Part shown: in pieces, positions 1-63,056 of the stretch
Position numbering within the stretch: the first letter of the stretch is position 1
How the letters are laid out: every line of letters begins with the position of its first letter
Source of the DNA: a virus
Lineage: Duplodnaviria; Heunggongvirae; Uroviricota; Caudoviricetes
Length of the DNA stretch: 64,000 nt
Virus record (IMG/VR): IMGVR_UViG_2721755711_000002
Direction: 5' to 3' (one strand)
Translations under genes and position numbers: made by a program
The notes under the pieces: generated by a model
Databases searched by the model: none
What the model saw: only the letters and a program-made list of their open reading frames with translations
What the model was told of the DNA's origin: nothing

Positions 1-1206
1 GTGGAAGGGCGTCGTTCGTTTACCGAATTCATTCGTGAAGGGGTGGGTGTCCATACTTTTAATGGAGAAATTTTTGTCCAGCCTGTATGGGATGCGGAAT
101 CCACGTCATTATTCCGGACGAAATTCAAAACCATCAGCCCGAAGCGTGTCAGTACACCCGGTTATGGTACCGGCGATCGTTTTATGCGTGCCGGGGTGGA
201 AATAAACCGACACGGAAAAGCGCTGGCCTACCATGTTCAGGATGATGACTGGCCCGGCTACGGTGTCAGTAAATGGACACGAATTACGGCAACACTGCCT
301 TCCGGACGACCGGGAATGATCCATGTGTTTCAGCCACAGGAAGACGGGCAGACCCGCGGGGCCAACCAGTTTTATTCTGTAATGGAGCGTCTCAAGATGC
401 TCGACACACTGCAGGCCACGCAACTGCAGTCGGCGGTGGTTCGCGCCATGTATGCCGCCACGATTGAATCCACACTGGATTCGGAAAAAGCGTTTGAATA
501 TATCGCCGGGGTGGGAGATGGAGGTAAAAATCCCCTGAACACCATCATGAAAGGCTACGCGCGTTATTACGCCACCAATACGGTAAAACTGGGCGGGGTC
601 CGTATTCCGCATCTTTACCCGGGAGATTCACTGAATCTGCAGACAGCCCAGAATGCGGATAATGGTTTTTCTGAACTGGAAAAGGCGCTGTTACGTTACA
701 TTGCTGCCGGACTGGGTGTGTCGTATGAGCAGCTTTCCCGGGATTATTCACAGGTCAGTTATTCCAGTGCCAGGGCATCCGCCAATGAGTCGTGGCGGTA
801 TTTTATGGGAAAACGAAAATTTGTGGCCAGTCGCCTGGCGTCACAGATGTTTGCCTGCTGGCTGGAGGAAGCCCTTATTCGTGGTGTGATCCGTCCGCCG
901 AAATCCCGTTTCTCATTCTGGGAGGCTCGTTCCGGGTGGTGCCGTGCCGAGTGGATTGGTGCCGGTCGTATGGCGATTGATGGCCTTAAGGAAGTGCAGG
1001 AAGCGGTGATGCGCATTGAAGGCGGCCTGAGTACATACGAGAAAGAGCTGGCCCTGATGGGGGATGACTATCAGGAGATTTTCCGCCAGCAGCTACGGGA
1101 AACTCAGGAGCGACAGGCTGCCGGTCTTCCGCGTCCGGTCTGGATAAAGGACGCGTTTCAACAGCAGATCCGACAGACAACGGGAGAAAAAGGCGATGCG
1201 CTGTAA
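1..1206 (+). CDS. phage portal protein, lambda gpB-like (5' end cut by window edge)
   Basis: ORF open from base 1; sequence reads like the lambda B portal C-terminal region; followed by C, D, E homologues in lambda order. Confidence 0.8.
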   Translation: MEGRRSFTEFIREGVGVHTFNGEIFVQPVWDAESTSLFRTKFKTISPKRVSTPGYGTGDRFMRAGVEINRHGKALAYHVQDDDWPGYGVSKWTRITATLPSGRPGMIHVFQPQEDGQTRGANQFYSVMERLKMLDTLQATQLQSAVVRAMYAATIESTLDSEKAFEYIAGVGDGGKNPLNTIMKGYARYYATNTVKLGGVRIPHLYPGDSLNLQTAQNADNGFSELEKALLRYIAAGLGVSYEQLSRDYSQVSYSSARASANESWRYFMGKRKFVASRLASQMFACWLEEALIRGVIRPPKSRFSFWEARSGWCRAEWIGAGRMAIDGLKEVQEAVMRIEGGLSTYEKELALMGDDYQEIFRQQLRETQERQAAGLPRPVWIKDAFQQQIRQTTGEKGDAL

Positions 1207-2812
1207 TTTATCACATATTGCCGCGATGGCATTTAATGAGCCGCTTTTACTGGAACCCGCCTATGCGCGGGTTTTCTTTTGCGCACTGGGTAAGGAAATT
1301 GGGGCGGGCAGCCTTGCCGTTCCGCAGCAGGCCGTTCAGCTTGATGCCGATGGTATGCAGCTGGCGGTTACCGATTATATGACTGGTGGTCCGCGTCCGG
1401 TAAAGAGTTACCAGGTGAAAAATGGTATTGCCATTCTGCCGGTGAGCGGCACGCTGGTACATAAAATGGGCACCCTGCGGCCATATTCCGGTATGACCGG
1501 TTATGACGGTCTGACTGCCCGTCTTAAGTCAGCGGTGAACGACCCGGATGTACGCGGCATTTTACTGGATATCGACAGTCCGGGCGGTCAGGCTGCCGGG
1601 GCGTTTGACTGTGCTGACATGATTTACCGTCTGCGGGAACAGAAGCCCGTGTGGGCGCTGTGTAATGACATGGCCTGTTCAGCCGCCATGTTGCTGGCGG
1701 CGGCCTGTACGCGTCGGCTGGTCACGCAGACGGCAAAAATTGGTTCGATTGGTGTGATGATGGCGCACACCAGTTACGAGAAACAACTGGCACAGGAAGG
1801 CGTGGATATCACGCTGATTTACTCCGGGCAGCACAAGGTTGACGGCAACAGTATTCAGGCGTTGCCGACAGGTGTGCGTGCGGATTTTCAGCGCCGTATT
1901 GATGAGGCCCGCCGGATGTTTGTCGACAAGGTGGCACTTTATACGGGGCTGAGTTCAGCGGTGGTGATGAATACCGAGGCTGCCGTTTATGACGGTCAGG
2001 CAGGCATTGATACAGGCCTGGCTGATCAACTGATTAATGCTGCAGATGCCGTTGATGTAATGGTTTCTGCTCTGAACGACTCTGTTACACAGGAGAATAC
2101 GATGACAACAAAAAATCTCACCGTTGCTGAAGCGGTGTCCCAGGAAAATCAGCGCGTGATGGGGATCCTGAATTGTCAGGAGGCGAAAGGACGCGAAAAA
2201 CTGGCGCAGATGCTGGCAGGTCAGCAGGGAATGTCAGTTGAGCAGGCAAAAACATTACTGGCGGCAGCACCGGTTGCCGGTACTGACAGCACAGGCGATC
2301 AGATTGTGGCACTTCCGGAAGCAAAAGGACGTGAACAACTGGCACGGACGCTGGCTGAACAGCCGGGAATGACGGTGGAGCAGGCGAAAACGTTACTGGC
2401 AGCGGCACCGATTGCCGGTGCGGCAAGTACCGGCGAGCAGATTATGGCACTTCCGGAAGCAAAAGGGCGTGAACAACTCGCACAGGCGCTGGCTGAACAG
2501 CCGGGAATGACTGTGGAACAGGCGAAAATGCTACTGGCAGCGGCACCGGCAACCGGTACGGCAAGTACCGGCGATCAAATTATTGCGTTGCCGGAAGCAA
2601 AAGGACGCGAAAAACTGGCACAGGCGCTGGCCGAACAGCCGGGAATGACAGTGGAGCAGGCGAAAACACTGCTGGCAGCTGCGCCATCAGTATCGCAACC
2701 GTCACAGGTAACACTTTTTGAGCGCTTCATGGCACAGCATGCCGCCAGTGCCGTTTCCGGTGGCGGAACTGCCGGGAACGGGGAAGAAGAACTGCTGATG
2801 AGTATGCCGTAA
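1196..2812 (+). CDS. head maturation protease / scaffold fusion (S49 ClpP-like, lambda gpC-Nu3-like)
   Basis: 538 aa; N-terminal half resembles lambda C (S49 peptidase); C-terminal half is a repeat-rich scaffold-like domain; overlaps portal stop. Confidence 0.8.
   Translation: MRCNLSHIAAMAFNEPLLLEPAYARVFFCALGKEIGAGSLAVPQQAVQLDADGMQLAVTDYMTGGPRPVKSYQVKNGIAILPVSGTLVHKMGTLRPYSGMTGYDGLTARLKSAVNDPDVRGILLDIDSPGGQAAGAFDCADMIYRLREQKPVWALCNDMACSAAMLLAAACTRRLVTQTAKIGSIGVMMAHTSYEKQLAQEGVDITLIYSGQHKVDGNSIQALPTGVRADFQRRIDEARRMFVDKVALYTGLSSAVVMNTEAAVYDGQAGIDTGLADQLINAADAVDVMVSALNDSVTQENTMTTKNLTVAEAVSQENQRVMGILNCQEAKGREKLAQMLAGQQGMSVEQAKTLLAAAPVAGTDSTGDQIVALPEAKGREQLARTLAEQPGMTVEQAKTLLAAAPIAGAASTGEQIMALPEAKGREQLAQALAEQPGMTVEQAKMLLAAAPATGTASTGDQIIALPEAKGREKLAQALAEQPGMTVEQAKTLLAAAPSVSQPSQVTLFERFMAQHAASAVSGGGTAGNGEEELLMSMP
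2177..2700 (+). repeat. in-frame tandem repeat, 138-bp unit, about four copies, inside protease/scaffold gene
   Basis: CCGGAAGCAAAAGG motif recurs at 2315, 2453, 2591 (variant at 2177); protein repeat ALPEAKGREQLA..AEQPGMTVEQAKTLLAAAP. Confidence 0.85.
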
Positions 2813-2852
2813 GCGGGGATCCGTGATTCAGATAAATCAGGAGACTGAGAAA

Positions 2853-3188
2853 ATGATTAAAACCACCACAGAAAAGCGCGCGGACGGGCGCATTTTTGCC
2901 GGAAGCGATCCGGTGTATACCGCAACAGGTACCAGTGGTATCAGTGTTGCCACGCCTTCACTGACGCCACTGATGCTGGATGACGCCAGCGGAAAACTGG
3001 TGGCATGGGATGGTCAGAAAGCCGGAACGGCTGTGGGGGTGCTGGCACTGGCGCTGGCCGGGACCGAGCCCGTACTGACGTACTACAAAAGCGGTACGTT
3101 TGCCACCGAATCGCTGGTCTGGCCGGATTCGGTGGATGCGGTGAAAAAAGCCAACGCGTTTGTGGGAAGTGCCATCAGCCACGCCTGA
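2853..3188 (+). CDS. head decoration protein, lambda gpD-like
   Basis: about 111 aa after AGGAGA RBS; position between C and E; sequence recalls gpD family. Confidence 0.75.
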   Translation: MIKTTTEKRADGRIFAGSDPVYTATGTSGISVATPSLTPLMLDDASGKLVAWDGQKAGTAVGVLALALAGTEPVLTYYKSGTFATESLVWPDSVDAVKKANAFVGSAISHA

Positions 3189-3210
3189 TGGTGAAGTGAT
3201 TAACTGAAAA

Positions 3211-3243
3211 AAACGGGTCGTGATGCGGCCCGTTTGTGTTTTT
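3211..3243 (+). terminator. intrinsic terminator-like hairpin with T tract between D and E genes
   Basis: AAACGGGTCG-loop-CGGCCCGTTT followed by TGTGTTTTT. Confidence 0.45.
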
Positions 3244-3258
3244 AAAGGAAAGTCAATT

Positions 3259-4287
3259 ATGGGGTTATTTACCACGCGTCAGTTGCTCGGCTACACCGAG
3301 CAGAAAGTGAAATTCCGTGCGCTGTTTCTGGAGCTGTTTTTTCGTCGTACGGTCACTTTCCATACTCAGGAAGTGATGCTGGATAAAATCACCGGAAAAA
3401 CACCGGTTGCGGCATATGTGTCTCCGGTTGTGTCAGGTAAGGTACTGCGCAGTCGTGGTGGTGAAACCCGCGTGTTACGCCCCGGCTATGTTAAACCAAA
3501 ACACCGGCTGGATTATCAGCAGGCGGTGGAGCGTCTTCCGGGGGAAGATCCGGCCCGTCTTAATGACCCGGCCTACCGTCGCCTGCGTATTCTGACTGAC
3601 AACCTGAAACAGGAAGAGCAGGCGATTGTGCAGGTGGAAGAAATGCAGGCGGTCAGCGCTGTTCTGCAGGGTAAGTACACCATGAGCGGTGAACAGTTTG
3701 AGACGGTGGAAGTGGATTTTGGACGTTCTGCCGCCAATAACATTACGCAGGCAGGGGGACGCGAATGGTCAAAACAGAATGCTGACACCTTTGATCCGAC
3801 GCATGATCTGGATGCGTACTGCGATTTTGCTTCCGGTACCATCAATATTGCGATTATGGACGGTACTGTCTGGCGTATGCTGAACGGTTTTAAGCTGTTT
3901 CGTGAAAAACTGGATACCCGCCGTGGCTCAAAATCTGAACTGGAAACCGCGCTGAAAGATCTGGGTTCCGTGGTTTCTTTTAAAGGTTATTACGGTGATC
4001 TGGCCATCATGGTGGCGAAAACAACGTATGTTGATGAAAACGGGGATGAGCAGCGTTATCTGCCGGAAGGCACACTGATTCTTGGAAACACTCAGGTGGA
4101 GGGTGTCCGTTGTTATGGCGCAATCCAGGATAACCAGGCGCTGAGTGAAGGGATCACCTCTGCAATTCGTTATCCGAAACACTGGTTAGAGGTGGGGGAC
4201 CCGGGGTGCGAATATACCATGACGCAGTCTGCGCCGTTGATGGTGTTGCCGGATCCGGACGCGTTTGTGGTGGTTCAGGTGAAATAA
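3259..4287 (+). CDS. major capsid protein, lambda gpE-like
   Basis: starts MGLFTTRQLLGY; about 342 aa; recalls lambda E; ORF track start at 3220 probably too early. Confidence 0.85.
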   Translation: MGLFTTRQLLGYTEQKVKFRALFLELFFRRTVTFHTQEVMLDKITGKTPVAAYVSPVVSGKVLRSRGGETRVLRPGYVKPKHRLDYQQAVERLPGEDPARLNDPAYRRLRILTDNLKQEEQAIVQVEEMQAVSAVLQGKYTMSGEQFETVEVDFGRSAANNITQAGGREWSKQNADTFDPTHDLDAYCDFASGTINIAIMDGTVWRMLNGFKLFREKLDTRRGSKSELETALKDLGSVVSFKGYYGDLAIMVAKTTYVDENGDEQRYLPEGTLILGNTQVEGVRCYGAIQDNQALSEGITSAIRYPKHWLEVGDPGCEYTMTQSAPLMVLPDPDAFVVVQVK

Positions 4288-36428: not shown

Positions 36429-37242
36429 GTTTGCCCTTCTCCGTTAAAAATTCGTCGGGTAGTTTCTGAGGGGCGTAGATCGGCAGTGCATCGCAACTGC
36501 AATAAACCTCCTCCCCAGCAGCAGTGATTTCGTCATAAAAACCATATACGGGCTTAATCAGCCCCTGCTCCAGCGCCCACGAATTGCGGAGGAGATAAAT
36601 TTTCTCGTCGCGCTCTTTGTGGTCCTGTCGGTATTTGTAGCCCGGACGCCGCCAGTTAGAATGCCAGCGCAGAGCAATCGCTCCACTCTGAACAGCCAGC
36701 AGATACTTAACGTTGCTTGCCAGCTTATGCCCCTGGTCAATTGCCACCCGGCGACTGATAAAATCCATATCCTTCACGGACTTCTGAAAACCGGACTTCA
36801 CTTCCCGGCGATCAATTTCGCTCACCCCGTCAGGCGGAATGGACGTAACCCACCCCTGAAAACGCTGTATGGTTTTCTCGATGGCCTGTTCGCGGTTGAG
36901 TTTTATCAGGTTGGCACTGGCGAAAATTCGCCTGTCGAGTTCCTTGCGAAACTCAGGTTTCAGTTTTTCAACAGTGACTTTTTTAGGGCCGTCAGGAGGC
37001 TGCTCCCGTAATGCCCCGCCGTCGATGACAAGACGGCTGTAGATGGCGGTGAGATGTTTTCTGGCTACGGTATCATCAGGGGTTTCTCGCTGAGCGGCTA
37101 CACGGAGTTTCCGGCACCATTCGAGCAATGATTTTTCGCTATCCCACCCGTGATTTACGTAGTAGTTAACGGCATCCGTCAGAACCTCATATAGCGTCCT
37201 GATCCGTTTCTTCTTCCTCACCGCCCGGCTGGAAATTGCCAT
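36409..37242 (-). CDS. head morphogenesis protein (candidate)
   Basis: about 277 aa after portal; start uncertain. Confidence 0.4.
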   Translation of the reverse strand: MAISSRAVRKKKRIRTLYEVLTDAVNYYVNHGWDSEKSLLEWCRKLRVAAQRETPDDTVARKHLTAIYSRLVIDGGALREQPPDGPKKVTVEKLKPEFRKELDRRIFASANLIKLNREQAIEKTIQRFQGWVTSIPPDGVSEIDRREVKSGFQKSVKDMDFISRRVAIDQGHKLASNVKYLLAVQSGAIALRWHSNWRRPGYKYRQDHKERDEKIYLLRNSWALEQGLIKPVYGFYDEITAAGEEVYCSCDALPIYAPQKLPDEFLTEKGKREFNRA

Positions 37243-38626
37243 CAGGCGTCTCCTGCTTCGGTGGTTCATAATTCGCCAGCGCGTCCACATCAATGATGAG
37301 TGGAGCTTCGCCATAGGTTTGCGTGGCATTAACAAGGCTTGCCAGCCATTCAGTGACGGCGGCACGGTTTTCAGGATCAACCTGTGGCGACACGGCAGAG
37401 AAAAGTGCTATCGCCTGTTGAATCACTTTACTGTCGCTTTCCCGGCGTTTGTCCGGCGACTCCTCCACCAGCTCCTGCCATGTCGCGGTAAATTCACGTC
37501 GCCACTGGTAAAACGTGGTTTTATAGTCATCAGTTATGATGTCCGGGTAATCATTTTTCAGCGACTGATAAAATTCCTCGTTCCAGGCGATGTACTGCAC
37601 CAGGCGTTCGAAATAATCCATCACAGGTTCAATCTGCTGGCGTACACCATCGATATACTGGCTGATAGCTTTCGAATCCTCAGTTCCTTCACCGAAACCA
37701 TTCGAGAAAGCCTCCTCCTTGATGAGAATCGCGGGAACATCGCTACCTGATGCAATATCGGAAATAATGTTGTCGCGGGCGGCATTTAGCGCGCCATCGA
37801 TGTTTTGTAAATTCAGCGAGGTAACGTCCTCATCCTTCCCGATACTAAGCACACCTTTATTTTTTGCCTCTTTGACATTTTCCCTTTTTCGTCCCGTGGC
37901 GGCAGCCATGATCCCGTCAAGTTTCGAACCGTTTTGCACAACTTTAGCTACCAGTACGCCCGCTTTCTGACTGACGAGATCATTCGCCTCCATCGTGTTG
38001 ATATAGGATTTCAGGGAATAAAGAACGCGCTGAAACACGCTTCGCCCGGTGAATCCGAACGATGAACTCTGAAACTCCAGATAAATCGGTGTGCCGTTGA
38101 AAATTTTCAACGTGCGTGACGGATGCCAGTCTTTTCCGCCAATCTTCAGCTTTTTATTGGCTTCCTGGAAAAACGGACTGTTTGGGTTCTGGTCAGTCAC
38201 CATCGAACCGGAAGCGTTCAACGGATCCCACGCGTTGATATACACATCCTCTTCTGTCAGTCCGAACGTCGGAAGCGGTTCACGACATGAAACACTGTCG
38301 GTGCCCACGCCGATCGCTGCGGCACCGTAGCAACGAGACAGAAAAAACAGATTTTTAATCTTCTCGTTGACTTTCATACGTTCCCATACCTCCTGAAAAC
38401 GCCGCACAACCCTCTCGTCAGGATCTGTCTCCACGTTATACTGTCGCGGCTTACACATCGCCATCAGTATGGGTTTTTCGACAAGTTTTCCGCCCAGAGG
38501 ATGGAATTGCCACAGCAGCTTACACAGTTCATAGCCGATATCGGTTCCCGGCTGAATTTCTTCAGCCTCAAGAATACGCATCAGTGCCGAACCGAGGCCG
38601 CCAGTAATCTCGATCTCTGCCATCAA
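37187..38626 (-). CDS. portal protein
   Basis: 479 aa directly downstream of large terminase; acidic C-terminus. Confidence 0.65.
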   Translation of the reverse strand: MMAEIEITGGLGSALMRILEAEEIQPGTDIGYELCKLLWQFHPLGGKLVEKPILMAMCKPRQYNVETDPDERVVRRFQEVWERMKVNEKIKNLFFLSRCYGAAAIGVGTDSVSCREPLPTFGLTEEDVYINAWDPLNASGSMVTDQNPNSPFFQEANKKLKIGGKDWHPSRTLKIFNGTPIYLEFQSSSFGFTGRSVFQRVLYSLKSYINTMEANDLVSQKAGVLVAKVVQNGSKLDGIMAAATGRKRENVKEAKNKGVLSIGKDEDVTSLNLQNIDGALNAARDNIISDIASGSDVPAILIKEEAFSNGFGEGTEDSKAISQYIDGVRQQIEPVMDYFERLVQYIAWNEEFYQSLKNDYPDIITDDYKTTFYQWRREFTATWQELVEESPDKRRESDSKVIQQAIALFSAVSPQVDPENRAAVTEWLASLVNATQTYGEAPLIIDVDALANYEPPKQETPDGNFQPGGEEEETDQDAI

Positions 38627-38641
38627 AAATATCCTGATTTT

Positions 38642-39970
38642 TTACAACGCCGCGTAATTACCGTGCGCAATGATCAATCCATAGGTGTAACAATCGAAAA
38701 GGTCATCAGCACGTTTATGCGCGTCTTTGTCTGCCAGGTGGAACCCGGCGATTTGTTTGATGAGGTGGTTTGCGGTTGTGCGCTTGAATGAAACGGTTTT
38801 GTCGTAAGCCTCGCGGGTAATTTTGCATTTACCCTGGTAATGGTGGCTGGAAGCCAGCACCGCGCGCTCGTCTTTCCCTTTGCTGGTTAACGCTGATTTA
38901 ATCGGCGTCATATCCCAGCCTTCGGTTTCCGCTTTCTGGTTGAGGATTGCGCCCATTGCGGCATCCTCCATGAATACCCCCTGACTCCCCAGGCGCGGGC
39001 GGCAGAGTTGCGCCAGCCGCTCGAGGTTGTCATAAACACCGGGGATATACTCAGGAAGCAGCGACGCTTTAATTTGCGTCACATCCCAGTCGATAACGGT
39101 CAGTTTCGGCTCATCGGAATACGTGGACTCATACGCGAAGTAAACCACGCCTGTCCCGTCGTTCTCCGTCCCGCCTTTCAGCGCCGTATCCATTACCGCA
39201 AAAATCATGTCGCAGTGTCGCGGCATCTCAACCGGCTGGCCATCCACCAGCAGCTTATCGACATCGAGTAACGCGTCTTTGGACCAGTCTACGAACTCTG
39301 CAAGATATTCCTGCTGCCAGACGCGCGGATCGGATTTCTTCTCCGTTTCCTCCAGTTCTTCTTTCGGAATATACGGATTCGATGAAGTTGGCGCATGGTG
39401 CATAACAAATCCCAGGGATTCATCGTGGCATATCGCGTAGAAAAAATTGCTCTCGTCGATACCGTTTGGTGTGGAAAATACCCACGCACAGCCGCGGTAA
39501 TCGACAAGCGTCGGGCGTATCGCTCGGGGCCAGATTTCCTCGAGCATTTCCGGCGATTTAGTGAATGCGGCCTCATCAATCAGCACAGCGTGATATTTAC
39601 GCCCACGCCCGGCCAGTTTGTTATTGTCCGTTACCCAAAAGTCGATGCGCCCCCCATTACGGAGAATGATGCGCTTTTCATTTTTTGACTGACTGAGGAT
39701 CAGCGGTTGCAGAACGGCGCTAATTTCATCCCAGATTTCCTGGTACTGGCGGTATTGCGCGGTAAAAATCCCCACCCTACCCGCGATAAGTTGCCCAGTG
39801 GTAGGAACGGCAAATTTCCGCGTAGCGAAACTGGTAGCGATGTTCACCAGCATCACCGTTTTACCCCAGCGACGACCACAGCATACCGCGTGGAAGCGTT
39901 CCTCTATTGCCGCCGTCCATGCAGCTATTTGCCCCTCATGAGGTTTTGGGAGGTAGATTTCAATCGACAT
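38642..39970 (-). CDS. terminase large subunit
   Basis: 442 aa; Walker A-like GRRWGKT near N-terminus. Confidence 0.8.
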   Translation of the reverse strand: MSIEIYLPKPHEGQIAAWTAAIEERFHAVCCGRRWGKTVMLVNIATSFATRKFAVPTTGQLIAGRVGIFTAQYRQYQEIWDEISAVLQPLILSQSKNEKRIILRNGGRIDFWVTDNNKLAGRGRKYHAVLIDEAAFTKSPEMLEEIWPRAIRPTLVDYRGCAWVFSTPNGIDESNFFYAICHDESLGFVMHHAPTSSNPYIPKEELEETEKKSDPRVWQQEYLAEFVDWSKDALLDVDKLLVDGQPVEMPRHCDMIFAVMDTALKGGTENDGTGVVYFAYESTYSDEPKLTVIDWDVTQIKASLLPEYIPGVYDNLERLAQLCRPRLGSQGVFMEDAAMGAILNQKAETEGWDMTPIKSALTSKGKDERAVLASSHHYQGKCKITREAYDKTVSFKRTTANHLIKQIAGFHLADKDAHKRADDLFDCYTYGLIIAHGNYAAL

Positions 39971-41051
39971 TATCCACTCCCGGCATCGGCAGAGAGTTGT
40001 GGATAATTATTTCGTTATTCTCACCACCCACGCCTTTTTTGAGGTTTTCAATCTCAGTGCGCAGCTTTTCGTTGCGAAGCCTCAGTCCTTCAAGCTCCAG
40101 ATCATTGCGACTGTCAGTTGCACCACCAGCAGAACTTCCTTTCGTCGCCATTATCAGCTTGATAAGTTCGCGCCGGGCGGCAGCCTTATCCTCCAGCAGG
40201 ATCTCAACACCAAATTTCCCGAGCTTTGCCCCTGCATATAATTGTCGCGCATCCCCATCAAGCAGAGTGGTATCAGCCATATAAAGCTGTCCCGTTCCCT
40301 CACCGCAGCACTTCGGACAATCCGGATTGGGTATGGCGTTATCAACAAAGCCGAGGCCTCCATATTCCGGCTCGGGTTTGCCATCTCTGGAGGCCTGTGC
40401 CGCTGCCTTATCGAATTCTGCAATATCACGCCACTGGTAGAGATGATTCTCGCCCCAGCAATAACGGCAGTTAACACGGCGAAATTGTGCCAACTGATTG
40501 GGGTCGGCCTGGACAATAGCCATCAACTGACTCACCAGTAAATCCAGGTCTGCGGTATAGCGTTTCTGATACTGATTGCGGAAGTAGCTGATAGCACGAT
40601 AAACCCTGGCATTTCTAAGCATACGGCTGGCGTTGCTGTTAGCTGTCGCACCTTGCCCCTCATAACCAGCCAGTCGGTATGCCTCTGTCGGCTTTTTCCC
40701 CTGAGCAACAAGCATCGCAAACTTAGCCTGCTGGTCAGAAATGCCGAATTCATCGGGGCAGAACGAAAATTCCTCCGCGTCGCCCTCATTCAGGCACGCA
40801 TCGGATACTGGCTTTTTTTTCTGAGATTTTCCGTTCCGCTTTTGCGCAGTCTGCGCAGATTTTTTCTGCGCACTTTGTTGCGCAGTTTTGCGCATTTCTG
40901 TCTGCGCATTTTTCGGAGGTTTTTTGATGTAACGACGGGCTGTTGCGTAATTCAGTCCCCTTGCCTCACACCATGCCACCGGAGATACACCGGAGCGGGT
41001 GTATTCAGCAATATATTCCTGCTGCAACGCCCCCCAGTCCGGTCTGCTCAT
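39960..41051 (-). CDS. terminase small subunit (candidate) with N-terminal HTH
   Basis: 363 aa immediately upstream of TerL; basic linker; Cys cluster. Confidence 0.5.
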   Translation of the reverse strand: MSRPDWGALQQEYIAEYTRSGVSPVAWCEARGLNYATARRYIKKPPKNAQTEMRKTAQQSAQKKSAQTAQKRNGKSQKKKPVSDACLNEGDAEEFSFCPDEFGISDQQAKFAMLVAQGKKPTEAYRLAGYEGQGATANSNASRMLRNARVYRAISYFRNQYQKRYTADLDLLVSQLMAIVQADPNQLAQFRRVNCRYCWGENHLYQWRDIAEFDKAAAQASRDGKPEPEYGGLGFVDNAIPNPDCPKCCGEGTGQLYMADTTLLDGDARQLYAGAKLGKFGVEILLEDKAAARRELIKLIMATKGSSAGGATDSRNDLELEGLRLRNEKLRTEIENLKKGVGGENNEIIIHNSLPMPGVDNVD

Positions 41052-41054
41052 TAG

Positions 41055-41306
41055 TTAGTCCTGATTTTTATCCACCCTGAGTAGTTCACGCAGGGCAAAG
41101 GCATCCCCTTTTCTGGCAAGCTTAAACAATGCCGCCCGTAGTTCGGCTTCACCTTTCGCTCTGCCCTTACGGATGGATGCGTAAAAATCTGTCATTGCTT
41201 CCCGATTTTCTTTCAGTCGGTTCAGATCAACATCCAGAACGTCAGCGATTTGTTGTGCAGTCATCCGGCACGCTGCCAGAGACTCGACTTTCGAATACGG
41301 AATCAT
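41055..41306 (-). CDS. small HTH-like protein
   Basis: 83 aa helical protein upstream of terminase genes. Confidence 0.4.
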   Translation of the reverse strand: MIPYSKVESLAACRMTAQQIADVLDVDLNRLKENREAMTDFYASIRKGRAKGEAELRAALFKLARKGDAFALRELLRVDKNQD

Positions 41307-42174
41307 TTGTCACCCCCATTGATATGCAGGGTGTCTTCTTCCTGTATTTTTCGTGAAGGATTTTTACTGCAGCGTTGTTCCAGGTGACCTGATGGTGAAT
41401 GCGTTTATGGCTGGCCCCCATCAGTGAGATTTTTACGCACGAGGGCGCATACATGACGGAGTAAAAACTTTTAACGTAGGTTCCGGAATCCAGATACAGC
41501 TCGGTCATTCCGCCGCTGTTTTTCTGCGTCTGTTTCTGCCCTAACTGGACAGCACCGATCGTCATAAACAATTCACCACAGCGACCGAGATTCGTGTACG
41601 TATTCACATCCTCGTTAATGCGCCCCATGAATGAGAACGGTCGATCAACCGAACAGATAAAGCTGTTCATTGCCTTGCGTTTCACCCACGAAGCATGGCC
41701 GCCATTGTCACCAAGAAAATCCCCGCCCTGCGACATAGCGATGGAAAGCGCGGGTATTGATTCGTAATACGCCAGCATTTCAGAAAGGATCGCATCCAGT
41801 TTCCTTATCGGGAAATAGGCCTGGTCATAGTTGCGATCCACCCGAAACTGGAACTCGTGATAATCATCATCGAGCTGAATGAAGTATTTACACCCGACCA
41901 TTTTTGCCAGGTCGAAACAGGCATTACGGGCGTAAAAAATTGAGCGGCGGTCACCGAAATTATCGGCTTCGTCAAAACGACTGGCGATATCGGCTTTGGA
42001 AAACACCAGCACCTGTTCACCAAATTCAGCTATGTACTGATGCCGTGTCTTATCTTCATCATCAACAACGATAAAAATTTTCCCGGTATAGCCAGCACGA
42101 CGCAACGTCCGGTAAGTCAGAACTTTGTCCGGTCGCCCGTGAGTCAGAATAAAGGCGCAAAAATCATCACGCAT
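41242..42174 (-). CDS. GT-A fold (family 2-like) glycosyltransferase, soluble
   Basis: FILTHGRPD..IFIVVDDEDKT..ARNACFDLAK..YFIQLDDDY fits GT2 N-terminal pattern and DxD motif; no TM segments. Confidence 0.5.
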   Translation of the reverse strand: MRDDFCAFILTHGRPDKVLTYRTLRRAGYTGKIFIVVDDEDKTRHQYIAEFGEQVLVFSKADIASRFDEADNFGDRRSIFYARNACFDLAKMVGCKYFIQLDDDYHEFQFRVDRNYDQAYFPIRKLDAILSEMLAYYESIPALSIAMSQGGDFLGDNGGHASWVKRKAMNSFICSVDRPFSFMGRINEDVNTYTNLGRCGELFMTIGAVQLGQKQTQKNSGGMTELYLDSGTYVKSFYSVMYAPSCVKISLMGASHKRIHHQVTWNNAAVKILHEKYRKKTPCISMGVTNDSVFESRVSGSVPDDCTTNR

Positions 42175-42955
42175 ATTCCTCCTCCCCGCCATGCATGATC
42201 TCCACCATGCGCTGCGTCATCCGGACAAAACCATTTTCGATGGCTTGCTGATAATCAATGATCACCAGTGCCGACTCCTCAAAAAGGCCCTGAATTTCAG
42301 CGGGGGCGTGAGCGTAATAGTCTGCAATTCTGCTGAAATTAAACACCGTGTGGCGTTCTGCCGCGCACAGGAGGAATTTTTCGATATCAGGCTCAAGGGA
42401 CGCCGTACGTATCCGGCTGACCAGCTCCTGAGTTTTCGTATCGTCGTACAGTTCACTGATATCCGGTTCATCCCCTGACGGCTCATAAACAGGCGTATCA
42501 ATTTTCGTCGTGTACGGCTCATCCTCATTCGCTGTACCTGGCAAAACATCCGTTAATAGTTCGTCAATTTCTGTCGGGCAGAATCCTGTCAGGGAGATAT
42601 CAAAATCAGCATTGATTAGGTCCGACAGCTCCATCCGTAACAGATCTTCATCCCAGCCAGCACTCATCGGCAGGCGATTATCAGCCAGGCGGTACGCCTT
42701 TTTCTGATCATCCGTCAGACCAGACAGAACAATGACCGGAACCGAATCCATTTTGAGCGCCTCAGCCGCCATAACACGCCCGTGCCCCGCAATAATTTCA
42801 CCCTTTTCATCAATCAGCACCGGATTTGTCCAGCCGAATTGCTTAATGCTTTCAACCAGCTGTGTCACCTGTTCAGGAGAGTGTGTCCTTGCATTGTGCA
42901 CATACGGAGACAACTCTTGTAACAGTCGATAGACAATATTCAATTTTTCGCTCAT
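42167..42955 (-). CDS. ParB-like nuclease domain protein
   Basis: N-terminus LSPYVHNARTHSPEQ..GWTNPVLID..IIAGHGRVMAA resembles ParB/Srx domain; acidic C-terminal half. Confidence 0.55.
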   Translation of the reverse strand: MSEKLNIVYRLLQELSPYVHNARTHSPEQVTQLVESIKQFGWTNPVLIDEKGEIIAGHGRVMAAEALKMDSVPVIVLSGLTDDQKKAYRLADNRLPMSAGWDEDLLRMELSDLINADFDISLTGFCPTEIDELLTDVLPGTANEDEPYTTKIDTPVYEPSGDEPDISELYDDTKTQELVSRIRTASLEPDIEKFLLCAAERHTVFNFSRIADYYAHAPAEIQGLFEESALVIIDYQQAIENGFVRMTQRMVEIMHGGEEEYA

Positions 42956-43353
42956 ACAACCTCGCTTTATGAATAAAAAACTAACAGCAGCCAGTGGAGA
43001 GCATTTATCATTAACATTTACAGATAAGATGACGTACATCATTGAAACGCCATTCAGCCATATACCGGCAGCATTCGTAGTTGCACTCCGTAACTCTGCG
43101 ACTAAGGTTAAAAACATGGCCCTCTTTCGCCACCGGCAAATCTTCCATGGATTTCCCCTGCCGGTTTTTTATTTTCGTCGATGCATAACATTGCATTTAC
43201 ATCAATACCGTCTATTGTCATAAGTATGTTGTACCGATGCTCGGGTGATATTGGCGGTCTTCGCCGGCCGGTTCTGTGTAGCTGTTCCCTGTGACCGGTT
43301 TTTTATTTCTCACATTATCGCAGCCCCTCGCTGAAGGGCTGCTGTAATGTCTG

Positions 43354-58664: not shown

Positions 58665-59090
58665 TCAATGCGCGACCACGGCATTTCCCGCCGGGCCGCC
58701 ACGATTCATCTGATTGAAACCAGCAATCGCCACTGCGACAAAATCATCAGCGTCTCTCACCAGTCGTTCCCGCGTCTCCACCAGTTCCCGAAACCAGGCT
58801 GAACTGTGGCTGCGCATTCGGGCCACCAGCAGAGGTGGCATTGCTTTTTCGATCGCTGGTAACAACGCCTGAATTTTTTTAACCGCATCAGGAGTGTCTT
58901 TCTCCACCCAGCGGAAAATTTTCTGGGTGTTACGGCCCAGGGCTTCCGGATGGCTGTCGTCGTACAATTCCGGGAACGTCATACCGAGTTCGAAATACGC
59001 TTTGGTAATTTTCGCAGCCGGTACTTTCTCGCCGTCTGGATGCGCCCAGGCATTCATCGCCATGCGGATGTGTTCATGCTTGATTTTCAT
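58665..59090 (-). CDS. YdaT-like protein (CII position)
   Basis: 141 aa downstream of Cro-like gene. Confidence 0.45.
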   Translation of the reverse strand: MKIKHEHIRMAMNAWAHPDGEKVPAAKITKAYFELGMTFPELYDDSHPEALGRNTQKIFRWVEKDTPDAVKKIQALLPAIEKAMPPLLVARMRSHSSAWFRELVETRERLVRDADDFVAVAIAGFNQMNRGGPAGNAVVAH

Positions 59091-59346
59091 GAATCAACTC
59101 CGGCGCATTTGATGTGTTAACCTTACATCCAACAGGTAAACCGTCGGTTGGGTTAGGGTATTTATCAGGGCGCAATTCATGCGGAGTCACTCCCCAGCCA
59201 AGCGCCTCACATGCTGGAATGACCTCCTCCGCAGGAACTCGTTTTTTAAACCACCCACTTATAGTTTGTGGAGTTTTACCAAGACGACGCCCTAACTCTG
59301 ATTGGCTCATTATCGACAGGATTTTCACTTGAGTACTTTTTTGCAT
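59074..59346 (-). CDS. Cro/YdaS-like HTH regulator
   Basis: MQKSTQVKILSIMSQSELGRRLGKTPQTISGW after GGAGGG RBS; divergent from repressor. Confidence 0.65.
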   Translation of the reverse strand: MQKSTQVKILSIMSQSELGRRLGKTPQTISGWFKKRVPAEEVIPACEALGWGVTPHELRPDKYPNPTDGLPVGCKVNTSNAPELIHENQA

Positions 59347-59378
59347 GTTTCCCTCCAAACTTTACGATGGCACCGATA

Positions 59379-59418: not shown

Positions 59419-59472
59419 GCCACTTATCAATTTTTTCTGTAGGATTGCAGGATTAGTTTTCGAGGGGTGGTG

Positions 59473-59865
59473 ATGATCTTTGTAAAACGCCTTCAGCAGG
59501 TGTTGCAGGAATTGAATATAAACCAGTCAGAGCTGGGAAGACGTCTTGGTGTAAAACCCCAATCCGTGCAAGGTTGGTTGAAAGGCGTGATGCCAAGAAT
59601 GGATAAATTGGAAAAATTAGCAGAGCTCTCACAACATCCCGTCCATTGGTTCTTTATGGAAGAAGAAACTCTCGGCGATAAGATGGCTGTATCCAGTAAT
59701 GACAACCAACCGCAACTTACAGAACAACAACGAAAAATCATATCGCTTTTAGATGAGTTACCTCAAAGCGACGCAGAGCAGATCATTCGGGATATGGAGC
59801 AAAAACGCGATTTCTATAAACGCAAACTTGAAGAGTTACTGCGGCAGAAAAACAAAACTGCCTGA
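59473..59865 (+). CDS. prophage repressor, DicA/RacR-like HTH
   Basis: MIFVKRLQQVLQELNINQSELGRRLGVKPQSVQGW after GAGGGG RBS. Confidence 0.65.
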   Translation: MIFVKRLQQVLQELNINQSELGRRLGVKPQSVQGWLKGVMPRMDKLEKLAELSQHPVHWFFMEEETLGDKMAVSSNDNQPQLTEQQRKIISLLDELPQSDAEQIIRDMEQKRDFYKRKLEELLRQKNKTA

Positions 59866-59911: not shown

Positions 59912-60271
59912 TTATAATCCCACCAGGCTTTCCAAGGGGATACCAAATTGATTATGAAGACGGCGAATCATTGGTAACGTAAGGCTTCTGGTGCCATTCA
60001 ACACCTCGTAAACCCGATTTTTTTTTCCAATTGCGGGTTCCAAATCTTTCACGGTCAGCCCCTGCTGTTCCATGCGAAATCTTATAGCTTCAATTGGGGA
60101 TGGTGGCTCAATGGGATAATGTTTTTTTTCATATTCCGCTATTAGCAAACACATCACCTCAAAGAAATCCCCCTCAGGCGTGTTAATTTCCGGCTCATTG
60201 TCGAACATGGGCTCAACAGCACGCAACGCGGCTTCATAATCTTGCTCTGTACGAATAGGTTTGATGTTCAT
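59912..60271 (-). CDS. higA: HigA-like antitoxin (XRE HTH)
   Basis: 119 aa downstream of HigB-like toxin. Confidence 0.65.
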   Translation of the reverse strand: MNIKPIRTEQDYEAALRAVEPMFDNEPEINTPEGDFFEVMCLLIAEYEKKHYPIEPPSPIEAIRFRMEQQGLTVKDLEPAIGKKNRVYEVLNGTRSLTLPMIRRLHNQFGIPLESLVGL

Positions 60272-60273
60272 GC

Positions 60274-60576
60274 TTACTCCAGTTCAATGGTATCAGCATC
60301 AATGGCATCGTATTCCTTGTGGTTTCCGATGAATTTAACAAATACCCATCCTCGCTGATACGCAATTGCAACAATTAAACGGTAATGATTACCTTTTATG
60401 TTGAATACCACGCGCCGGTTTTTCAATATACTGGCCGTTCGGTATTGTGCCTTAATGTCTGCCGGGCTTTTCCAGTCAGCCTTTGCTGCCTCATCCACCC
60501 ATGCCCTTAGCGGTTGTTCTGCATCGGGATTCTCCGCCCAAAAATCCCTAAGCGTTTTAACTGAGATGATCTTCAT
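60274..60576 (-). CDS. higB: HigB-like toxin (RelE/ParE superfamily)
   Basis: 100 aa; ..NIKGNHYRLIVAIAYQRGWVFVKFIGNHKEYD typical of HigB. Confidence 0.7.
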   Translation of the reverse strand: MKIISVKTLRDFWAENPDAEQPLRAWVDEAAKADWKSPADIKAQYRTASILKNRRVVFNIKGNHYRLIVAIAYQRGWVFVKFIGNHKEYDAIDADTIELE

Positions 60577-60605: not shown

Positions 60606-60851
60606 ATGCAATCGGCCTCAGCTACAAATTTAATGATAAATATATTGACCAATTAAATTTTAATTTGTAGATTATACTCACCAACCAACTCCCCGCCCCA
60701 CAGAACGCAGGGCAATACTTCGAGTTACCAGGCAGTGGTCAGGGGTTAAGTAGCCAGCCCGAGGCGTAAGAACATGACGGCAGGGTTCAACTTTAACTAT
60801 GCAGCAGGTTTTTGTTCCGCCACCCCGGCGTTAAAGGGAAATGAGGTCAGC

Positions 60852-61004
60852 ATGGATACTATCGATCTTGGCAACAACAAATCTCTGGTATACGGCGTGT
60901 TTCCAAACCAGGACGGTACGTTCACCGCGATGACGTATACCAAAAGCAAAACGTTTAAAACCGAAGCTGGCGCGCGTCGCTGGTTAGCCAGAAATACTGA
61001 CTGA
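60852..61004 (+). CDS. ydfA: YdfA-like small protein
   Basis: MDTIDLGNNKSLVYGVFPNQDGTFTAMTYTKSKTFKTEAGARRWLARNTD. Confidence 0.6.
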   Translation: MDTIDLGNNKSLVYGVFPNQDGTFTAMTYTKSKTFKTEAGARRWLARNTD

Positions 61005-61015
61005 TGAGGTTAACG

Positions 61016-61651
61016 ATGGAATTTAAAGACTTACCGCTATCAATCCAGGAGATTGCAGCACACACACTACGTCAACATCTGAACGAAGCTATGGCTGAAT
61101 CTGCAAAGAAAGAAACCATTGATAACATGGCTCGTAATGTGCACGATGCGTTTACCGGATTGTATTTCTGTGCGTCTGTAAATAAACACGACCCAGAGAG
61201 TGTGGCAAAGAAAATTGCAGAAACGACAGTGCAAAACATCAATACGAAACAAACCGAAGACGAAATTGACCAGCCTGCCAGTGAACAAAAGAAAGAAAAA
61301 TCGCCATATGCGGGGAACATGTTTGTTTATGACAAACTTATCCGAATTCGTGGCGAAATTCCGACTGAATACCTGGCAAAAATTCACCAGGCATTACTTA
61401 AAAATCTGGAAACGGAAGTATTTGATGGCAACACCAACGGCTCCTTCGTGGTGTCAGCCCTCACAAAAGAGTGGGATACAGATAATCGCCGGAATGTTGC
61501 TACATGGTTATTCAGCAACAAAGCTGCTGCCCTGGAAGCTGCGGCCTGTATTTGCGACCTGCTAAGGACAGACCGCAAATACAACCTGGATGTGTATAGC
61601 TATATTTATGCTGAACACTATCCGCTCTGGATTGACTGGTTTAAAGGGTAA
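61016..61651 (+). CDS. hypothetical protein (211 aa)
   Basis: ATG 61016 after GAGG; occupies ydfB/ydfC position. Confidence 0.45.
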   Translation: MEFKDLPLSIQEIAAHTLRQHLNEAMAESAKKETIDNMARNVHDAFTGLYFCASVNKHDPESVAKKIAETTVQNINTKQTEDEIDQPASEQKKEKSPYAGNMFVYDKLIRIRGEIPTEYLAKIHQALLKNLETEVFDGNTNGSFVVSALTKEWDTDNRRNVATWLFSNKAAALEAAACICDLLRTDRKYNLDVYSYIYAEHYPLWIDWFKG

Positions 61652-61813
61652 CACCTGCGGGACCGAGCCGACCAGCACCACGATTATTTTATCCTCCATT
61701 AAGGGGTGAATTAAAAATGGAGACCAACACGCTGCTACGTGTGGTCGTGCGCCGGACACGGATAACCTTCCGGCATGCTCTTTAACAATCTGGATATCCA
61801 CAACAGCAATAAC

Positions 61814-62332
61814 CTACGGATTGCTGCTCAATGCTCTACCTATCTCTTCTTCAGATGGGGGCGGTATATAGTCATCATTGCGTTCAAATTTAAAGCGCGA
61901 ATCACATTTCAGGCATTTAGAAATATGGAACTTATCATGCTCACCAATTTCAACAGGTTGAAGTATTGCTATTACACCATGCTGATAGCAATTGGGACAG
62001 GCATAGTAAAAACATGTGTCTTCTTCGTCGAGGCTGTTCCTGAAAGCATAGACAAAATGCCCAAAACCAGTTTTGTGTATCGTATAGCATTCAAGTTTTC
62101 GATTACGCTCGTCAATTTCATGACATTTTTGCTTAAGCAAGAGTATTTCCTCGTACTGAAGCGCGAGCGTTTTCGCTAGCTCTGCGTTCTGTATTTGTAA
62201 GTCTGCCAGTTGGCGACGCATTTCGTAGACAGCCTTTTCACGTTCAGATTGGCTTTTTGCATCAAGTATTACCTGTAATAAATCAATCGAGACTTTAATT
62301 GCCGTTATTGATGAAGTTATTCCAGATAGCAT
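61814..62332 (-). CDS. coiled-coil protein with C-terminal Cys4 zinc-ribbon-like motif
   Basis: 173 aa; CPNC..(20)..CLKC; AT-rich; convergent with 61016-61651. Confidence 0.45.
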   Translation of the reverse strand: MLSGITSSITAIKVSIDLLQVILDAKSQSEREKAVYEMRRQLADLQIQNAELAKTLALQYEEILLLKQKCHEIDERNRKLECYTIHKTGFGHFVYAFRNSLDEEDTCFYYACPNCYQHGVIAILQPVEIGEHDKFHISKCLKCDSRFKFERNDDYIPPPSEEEIGRALSSNP

Positions 62333-62635
62333 TCTTAACTCTCTTTGTTGTTGGGGTATCCGGATTATACAAATTTCTTGTCGTTGGGGAATGACGGAAA
62401 CCACCTCGCCTGACGTGGTTAAAAGCAGGCACACAACGCGAAAGCGCACGGCGAAGGTTTCTTTTCCTTAGAAGGCTTGTCGTTAGATTTCTTCGACCGT
62501 GCACTTCCGGTTGTGGCAATCCGCGAAATGGCGCGGCGGTAAGTATGGCGGGTTATCCTTACCCCCATTGTGGCACCGGGTTGGCAGGTTGACCATACGC
62601 TTAAGTGACAACCCCGCTACAACACTCCATGTTGA

Positions 62636-62694
62636 TTTGTACCTTTGGCGGCATCAGTTTCATTGCTGGCTGATGTCCGCCCTTTTTAAAGTGA
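62636..62694 (+). ncRNA. dicF: DicF-like small RNA
   Basis: TTTGGCGGCATCAGTTT..CTGATGTCCGCCCTTTTT closely resembles DicF as recalled; upstream of dicB homologue. Confidence 0.6.
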
Positions 62695-62867
62695 ATTTTG
62701 TGATGCGGTGAATGCGGCTCAGCGCACGCGGAACAGTTAAAAAGCGATTAGTTCCCCCGTATCGGGTGTTTATGGGTTCCCTGTATCCGGCGTTAATTGT
62801 TAACTGGTTAACGTCACCTGGAGGCACCAGGCACCGCATCACAAAATTCATTGTTGAGGACGCGATA

Positions 62868-63056
62868 ATGGAAACGTTATTACTCAATTCCACTACGCCT
62901 GAAACTCGTTTTGAAATTGGCGTTATCACTGGCGATAAAACTTTTATTGAGGATGCCATTAACCAGATAAAGCATGAGCCGGATTCATTAAATAAGGTTT
63001 GCATTGTTTCAATGATGGCCCGTTCACGCCTGATGCAAAAAGGATACTGGCAATGA
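62868..63056 (+). CDS. dicB: DicB-like cell division inhibitor
   Basis: METLLLNSTTPETRFEIGVITGDKTFIEDAINQIKHEPDSLNKVCIVSMMARSRLMQKGYWQ. Confidence 0.7.
   Translation: METLLLNSTTPETRFEIGVITGDKTFIEDAINQIKHEPDSLNKVCIVSMMARSRLMQKGYWQ

Follow-up and report, generated by a model that had tools for sequence, protein, structure and literature searches.

A diverged Rip1-family gene, recognised by sequence and predicted fold, antisense within the dicB-type operon of a Qin-like prophage

The window, a stretch of 64,000 nucleotides from a Caudoviricetes record (IMGVR_UViG_2721755711_000002), contains an operon of the dicB type. The first gene of this operon is a ydfA homologue (60774-61004, +; DUF1391, PF07151, E 3.2e-27) with a promoter-like site ahead of it in the promoter scan (60645-60673, +). 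A DicA-like repressor gene (59467-59865, +) and a YdaS/DicC-like gene (59074-59358, -) are also present. The order of the operon from 5' to 3' is ydfA, a gene for a 211-amino-acid protein, DicF and dicB. The DicF-like small RNA (62634-62682, +; RF00039, E 3.2e-6) is a diverged copy that scores 38.7 bits against the Rfam gathering score of 48 and is therefore missed by a default Rfam scan; it has a terminator-like hairpin followed by a T run (site 62650-62677). The cell division inhibitor gene dicB (62868-63056, +; PF05358, E 3.3e-28, residues 53-114 of the ORF 62712-63056) is named as such in the annotations of relatives, and a DUF1482/YdfD homologue follows downstream. Directly after DicF, a sub-threshold match to STnc100 (62684-62887, +; 35.3 against 47 bits, E 2.3e-5) extends over the leader of dicB. 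Matches to snoRNA-like Rfam families on the minus strand were rejected as chance (E 0.18-8.9).

Two convergent genes are found between ydfA and DicF, as the first-pass annotation had described. The plus-strand gene (61016-61651; ORF 61004-61651) gives the expected 211 amino acids from the ATG at 61016. The minus-strand gene (61814-62332) is part of an ORF (61814-62449) that begins with a GTG at 62449, and the internal ATG at 62332 gives 172 amino acids and a stop; the ORF had been placed correctly, but the length of 173 amino acids that had been assigned to it includes the stop codon. The 172-amino-acid start is favoured because the family alignments begin at this ATG and because AAGAGAG, which resembles a ribosome binding site, can be read 7 nt before it. 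Some GenBank records start the gene at the GTG, and in public records, where it is a 'hypothetical protein', the start calls are inconsistent (172, 196, 211 and 267 amino acids). The gene is AT-rich, as had been noted, with a GC content of 40.3% (GC3 35.8%) against 50% for the window.

The comparison with the Qin prophage of K-12 delimits the inserted DNA. Positions 60814-60994 of the window align with ydfA (91.7% DNA identity for ydfA), which forms the left border of the slot, and the homology resumes at 62421 and extends to 63328, which corresponds in K-12 to the stretch from a point 220 bp before dicF to ydfD inclusive. The slot holds 511 bp in K-12, with ydfB and ydfC, and 1426 bp in the window, so the replacement of ydfB/ydfC proposed in the first-pass annotation is borne out at the DNA level. 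One relative, the PapRG-04-4 prophage, retains ydfB and a ydfC-sized gene and has the convergent pair added downstream of them.

Other small modules of the prophage were also recorded. A HigB toxin gene (60274-60576, -; PF09907, E 4.8e-33) and an HTH antitoxin-like gene (59912-60271, -) are located between the DicA-like repressor gene and ydfA, and two loci of related prophages (L005 and L006) have RelB/RelE in this place; small modules appear to be exchanged at this second position too, beside the slot. Just upstream of the small terminase gene, a TET-associated glycosyltransferase gene (41242-42192, -; PF20691, E 6e-35; phrog_842, 'beta-glucosyl-HMC-alpha-glucosyltransferase') overlaps with the gene of a ParB_N-domain protein (42167-43117, -), and the two are possibly a cassette for DNA hypermodification carried by a temperate prophage.

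The minus-strand gene lies antisense to the operon that produces DicF and DicB, in agreement with the earlier description. Its upstream region (62333-62420, -) is inside the inserted cassette and has, in addition to the AAGAGAG, an exact TATAAT hexamer, read as the reverse complement of 62361-62366, and a weak -35 element, TTCCCC, at a spacing of 16 nt. This region is kept in four related prophages with the same or a 31-36% identical allele, which suggests a putative promoter of its own, although the consensus promoter scan (at least 4 of 6 matches per hexamer) did not call it. Downstream of the stop codon, at 61700-61770 (-), there is a hairpin, ACCACACG...CGTGTTGGT, followed by CTCCAUUUUUAA. 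The hairpin is a possible intrinsic terminator of the minus-strand gene; it is weak (fold -17.9 kcal/mol, z -1.64), is kept in four of five related loci and was not found by the terminator scan.

The remote homology search and structure prediction recommended in the first-pass annotation both led to Rip1. Both its sequence and its modelled fold place the product of the minus-strand gene, though diverged, in the Rip1 (ring interacting pore 1) family. A profile of 62 relatives matched Rip1 of phage HK446 (PDB 9oox, chain L) over its full length, with E 1.3e-36 and profile positions 4-148 of 160 aligned. The window protein alone also found HK446 Rip1, by phmmer (E 3.6e-8) and by BLASTP (E 5e-11, 23% identity over 150 residues), and the hhalign probability was 99.8%. 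In PHROGs the protein belongs to phrog_1244 (E 5.5e-31), a family shared by HkaP of HK620 and gp30 of the Pseudomonas phage JBD30. Full-length relatives at 27-32% identity were obtained by tblastn of phage records: hkaP of HK620, the homologues in HK629/HK630, genes of Klebsiella and ECOR13 prophages, and genes of some 30 Mu-like phages of Pseudomonas, JBD30 (gp30), D3112 (orf25) and DMS3 among them. The reverse tblastn with HK446 Rip1 recovered the same set of phage genes. A word-indexed protein search gave just seven close relatives, and it was an exhaustive HMMER search that brought the family to light: at E<=1e-3 it gave 245 cluster representatives, of which almost all have 140-175 amino acids and match from end to end.

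The family alignments comprised 40 and 62 members. Among the 62 relatives the cysteines C112, C115, C140 and C143 are invariant, and conservation is 90% or more at Y83, G91, Y95, L124 and Q125. These four cysteines form the CPNC (residues 112-115) and CLKC (residues 140-143) motifs reported earlier, and the Cys4 pattern (CxxC...CxxC) and the ILQ motif of the C-terminal domain are found also in HK446 Rip1. Metal binding by the Cys4 of the window protein is presumed from these residues. No above-threshold match was found in Pfam or NCBIfam for the minus-strand protein; a sub-threshold match to the NCBIfam 'ECs_2282 family putative zinc-binding protein' (14.9 bits, cut-off 37) was rejected, as it reflects the CxxC pairs alone. 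Neither protein of the convergent pair had a match in PADLOC-DB 2.0.0 (2023), a library older than the description of Rip1, and a literature search for hkaP returned unrelated acronyms only. Zip and Tab of JBD26 were considered as the identity of the minus-strand protein and rejected, being different proteins.

The AlphaFold2 model built from the family alignment has a pLDDT of 92.6, and Rip1 chains were the sole significant matches when it was compared with the PDB by Foldseek. The modelled fold has the arrangement of Rip1, in which a compact C-terminal domain comes after long helices at the N-terminus. The first 81 residues, described earlier as a coiled coil, are predicted as two long helices (residues 2-24 and 28-81) and are followed by a beta-rich Cys4 domain (residues 82-151). 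Residues 1-24 are moderately hydrophobic and amphipathic (mean Kyte-Doolittle 1.2-1.4, hydrophobic moment 0.26-0.29), which would be compatible with an amphipathic pore helix, and no 18-residue window of the protein has transmembrane-like hydropathy. The C-terminal tail (residues 152-172; 61814-61879, -) carries the motif NxDYxxPxSxEEIxRxL with a predicted helix at residues 161-169. The tail motif is kept among the enterobacterial alleles, including those just 31-36% identical overall, and is absent from HK446 Rip1, HK620 HkaP and JBD30 gp30. This subfamily-specific tail may add further control or a new trigger specificity.

The likeness to HK446 Rip1 extends to length (164 against 172 amino acids), to the N-terminal helices with a C-terminal Cys4 domain and ILQ motif, and to the position of the gene antisense within a repressor-controlled early-left operon of a lambdoid prophage. 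The differences are the low identity of 23%, the additional conserved tail and the lack of the N-terminal 10-residue extension of the HK446 protein. The genes also differ in location: that of the window is placed between ydfA and DicF in a DicA/DicB-type (Qin-like) operon, that of HK446 in the pL operon, flanked by N and the cIII side. The hkaP gene of HK620 is likewise on the opposite strand in the early-left operon, and gp30 of JBD30 is on the opposite strand between terminase genes; HkaP, the HK629/HK630 homologues and the homologues in the Casadabanvirus phages JBD30 (gp30), D3112 (orf25) and DMS3 are all opposite-strand phrog_1244 morons of about 164 amino acids in temperate phages, with 24-29% identity to the window protein. 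The Rip1-like gene, antisense to a repressor-controlled operon, thus has the usual moron layout.

A review (PMC13434031) covers the work of Patel et al. (Nature 651:1060, 2026), in which Rip1 was characterised experimentally as an anti-phage defence of prophages. By its account the protein does no harm alone, and homologues are widespread in proteobacterial prophages. Escape mutations map to the portal in Pseudomonas phages and to the small terminase in E. coli phages, and 12 Rip1 monomers ring the 11-mer terminase ring; the solved complex has the C-terminal domain in contact with this protein ring. The pore is made by the N-terminal amphipathic helices, as described there from liposome dye release, cell perforation and aborted infection. 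The trigger consists of oligomeric phage proteins and acts late in infection, so that the same text describes a defence like abortive infection and not classical entry exclusion. The accounts in a meeting report and a later paper (PMC12908700 and PMC13601566) agree with the review.

The best explanation, to which a probability of about 0.8 is given, is that the product of the minus-strand gene is an anti-phage protein of the Rip1 family in a Qin/lambdoid-type prophage, acting by a triggered-pore mechanism by homology, and that the 211-amino-acid gene is separate. By analogy with HK446 Rip1 and the Pseudomonas relatives, the protein would cause abortive infection through a triggered pore. It would remain inactive until ring-shaped assembly proteins (small terminase or portal) were produced by a superinfecting phage; the C-terminal Cys4 domain would then bind around the phage ring as a second ring, and the N-terminal amphipathic helices would assemble a pore in the inner membrane, with cell death before the progeny mature. 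As the identity to HK446 Rip1 is 23%, the trigger specificity is not transferable and the activity is not certain.

The resident prophage has a full packaging module (small terminase, large terminase and portal, 37187-41051) and carries the Rip1-like gene antisense in the DicA-controlled operon. From this placement in the DicA-repressed ydfA-DicF-dicB operon, the gene is probably transcribed from its own promoter during repression. On induction, convergent transcription of the dicB operon could lower its expression, which is a speculative step. A stronger version, which we regard as unlikely, gives the antisense placement itself a function. In the repressed prophage, transcription of the Rip1 gene would hold down the leaky synthesis of DicF and DicB, both toxic; once repression is lifted, Rip1 would be shut off by the strong convergent transcript of the operon, so that the terminase and portal rings of the prophage itself would not set off its defence, with the tail possibly adding control or specificity.

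The ydfA-dicF interval of Qin-like prophages is, as far as the sequence comparisons reach, a swap site for strongly diverged Rip1 alleles between conserved flanks. Among 5426 complete E. coli genomes, two have the window allele at a coverage of at least 80%, in one case as a truncated copy, and many match the flanks alone, across a cassette of the same size. The PapRG-04-4 copy (L001, 4867-5187) is annotated as a 106-amino-acid product from an upstream GTG, which indicates a truncated gene, and strain 41 has a 98%-identical allele (L002, annotated span 3260-3850). In A19 and 05-3629 the same slot holds minus-strand genes of 170-171 amino acids, 36% and 31% identical to the window protein, which belong to the same family and share with it the strand, the flanking DNA on both sides, the Cys4 and the tail motif. 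The two halves of the protein have diverged about equally between alleles, and dN/dS is 0.33 against an 89%-identical allele. A total of 84 related loci were collected, of which 29 are in the ydfA/dicB slot and 55 have no ydfA or dicB within 4 kb, for example a gene next to cI in PhiR49_1; a profile search of genome contigs with a narrower alignment gave four loci only. The Rip1-like gene is on the strand opposite ydfA, dicB and ydfD in all 29 slot loci.

A classical superinfection exclusion function, in which the protein would block the entry of incoming phage DNA and form no late pore, is improbable. SieB of lambda and P22 is a membrane protein encoded by a prophage-expressed defence gene in an equivalent antisense moron position. 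The hkaP gene of HK620, which presumably occupies the position of sieB in P22 and lambda, is annotated as a 'putative superinfection exclusion protein', and this label appears positional. The window protein has neither a transmembrane segment nor a Pfam or NCBIfam match above threshold, which counts against an entry-blocking protein of the SieB type, and no sequence or fold relationship with SieB or Tab was detected. Tab of JBD26 is likewise encoded by a prophage-expressed defence gene in the equivalent antisense position (PMC10884400) but, unlike the Rip1-like protein, has 83 residues and blocks tail assembly. An older attribution, by which JBD30 gp30 'blocks phage genome injection', is listed in PMC11445458 with reference to Tsao et al. 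(2018), and it differs from the pore model. The later family work in PMC13434031, with portal and small terminase escape mutations, a Rip1 ring around the terminase ring and liposome dye release, stands against it. The suggestion that the minus-strand gene could be an exclusion gene is thus retained as regards anti-phage defence, for which membership in the Rip1 family by profile, pairwise comparison and fold argues, and is not retained as regards classical entry exclusion, given the late pore expected for this family.

A regulatory role, in which antisense transcription or nucleic-acid binding by the zinc ribbon would modulate the production or processing of DicF and DicB, is very improbable. 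Nucleic-acid binding is frequent among Cys4 zinc ribbons, and the gene is convergent with the operon with its 5' end about 300 bp upstream of DicF. Antisense placement is, however, standard for the same family in lambdoid phages that lack DicF, namely HK446 and HK620; in Mu-like phages of Pseudomonas the family occurs between the terminase genes, and the 55 of 84 loci outside a ydfA or dicB context argue in the same direction. In the solved Rip1 complex the C-terminal domain touches a protein ring, according to PMC13434031, which speaks against a nucleic-acid role. The influence on DicF/DicB processing considered in the first-pass annotation thus finds no support here.

The 211-amino-acid protein matches phrog_2151 ('Ybl81') with E 1.5e-108 and its N-terminus matches also phrog_1363, 9419, 6937 and 33007. 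It has 151 relatives with 67-98% identity, mostly from E. coli, that are unnamed or called 'Ybl81'. Records of isolated phages contain no more of the protein than its N-terminal 50-96 residues, for the most part in early regions of Stx phages; the N-terminal 50-90 residues or so are a helical module common to shorter proteins of other lambdoid/Stx phages. The first 50 or so residues (MEFKDLP..IAA.TL..., 61016-61170, +) occur as a stand-alone 52-amino-acid ORF in strain 41 (L002, 2817-2975) and begin proteins of Stx and other lambdoid phages, from the four further PHROGs, that are otherwise unlike it. The sequence comparisons suggest a shared N-terminal module with exchangeable C-termini. No match was found for the protein in Pfam, NCBIfam, PADLOC or the PDB, where the profile search gave noise at E about 0.1, and the AlphaFold2 model (pLDDT 53) was too poor for a fold search. 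The evolution of the gene looks relaxed, with dN/dS of 0.4-0.9, the value against L005 being unreliable because the proteins differ by compensating indels. The full-length gene is beside the Rip1-like gene in four of the 29 slot loci, and strain 41 has the 98%-identical Rip1 allele without it.

The pairing of the two convergent genes that the first-pass annotation had implied is not upheld by these counts. The least probable reading is a two-part system in which the 211-amino-acid early protein neutralises the Rip1-like protein at induction, as the adjoining lytic-strand anti-Tab does for the moron Tab in JBD26 (PMC10884400), since the full-length gene, although it directly adjoins two different Rip1 alleles (in the window, PapRG-04-4, A19 and four viral contigs), is missing from most slot loci and from the HK446, HK620 and JBD30 contexts and has the relaxed-looking evolution described above. 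The 211-amino-acid gene is read as independent, non-obligate cargo of the early operon that would be expressed with DicF and DicB on derepression.

The Rip1 family has been known since 2026, and the locus does not reveal a new kind of system. The triggered-pore reading adds a mechanism-level annotation for a gene recorded as a 'hypothetical protein'; also of note are the strongly diverged alleles in one slot and the tail specific to the subfamily. Prophages of the Qin type abound in E. coli. Should the alleles differ in the terminase or portal rings that they recognise, the slot would amount to a compact natural collection of phage-sensing specificities, which could be of use in predicting phage host range and in selecting therapeutic phages.
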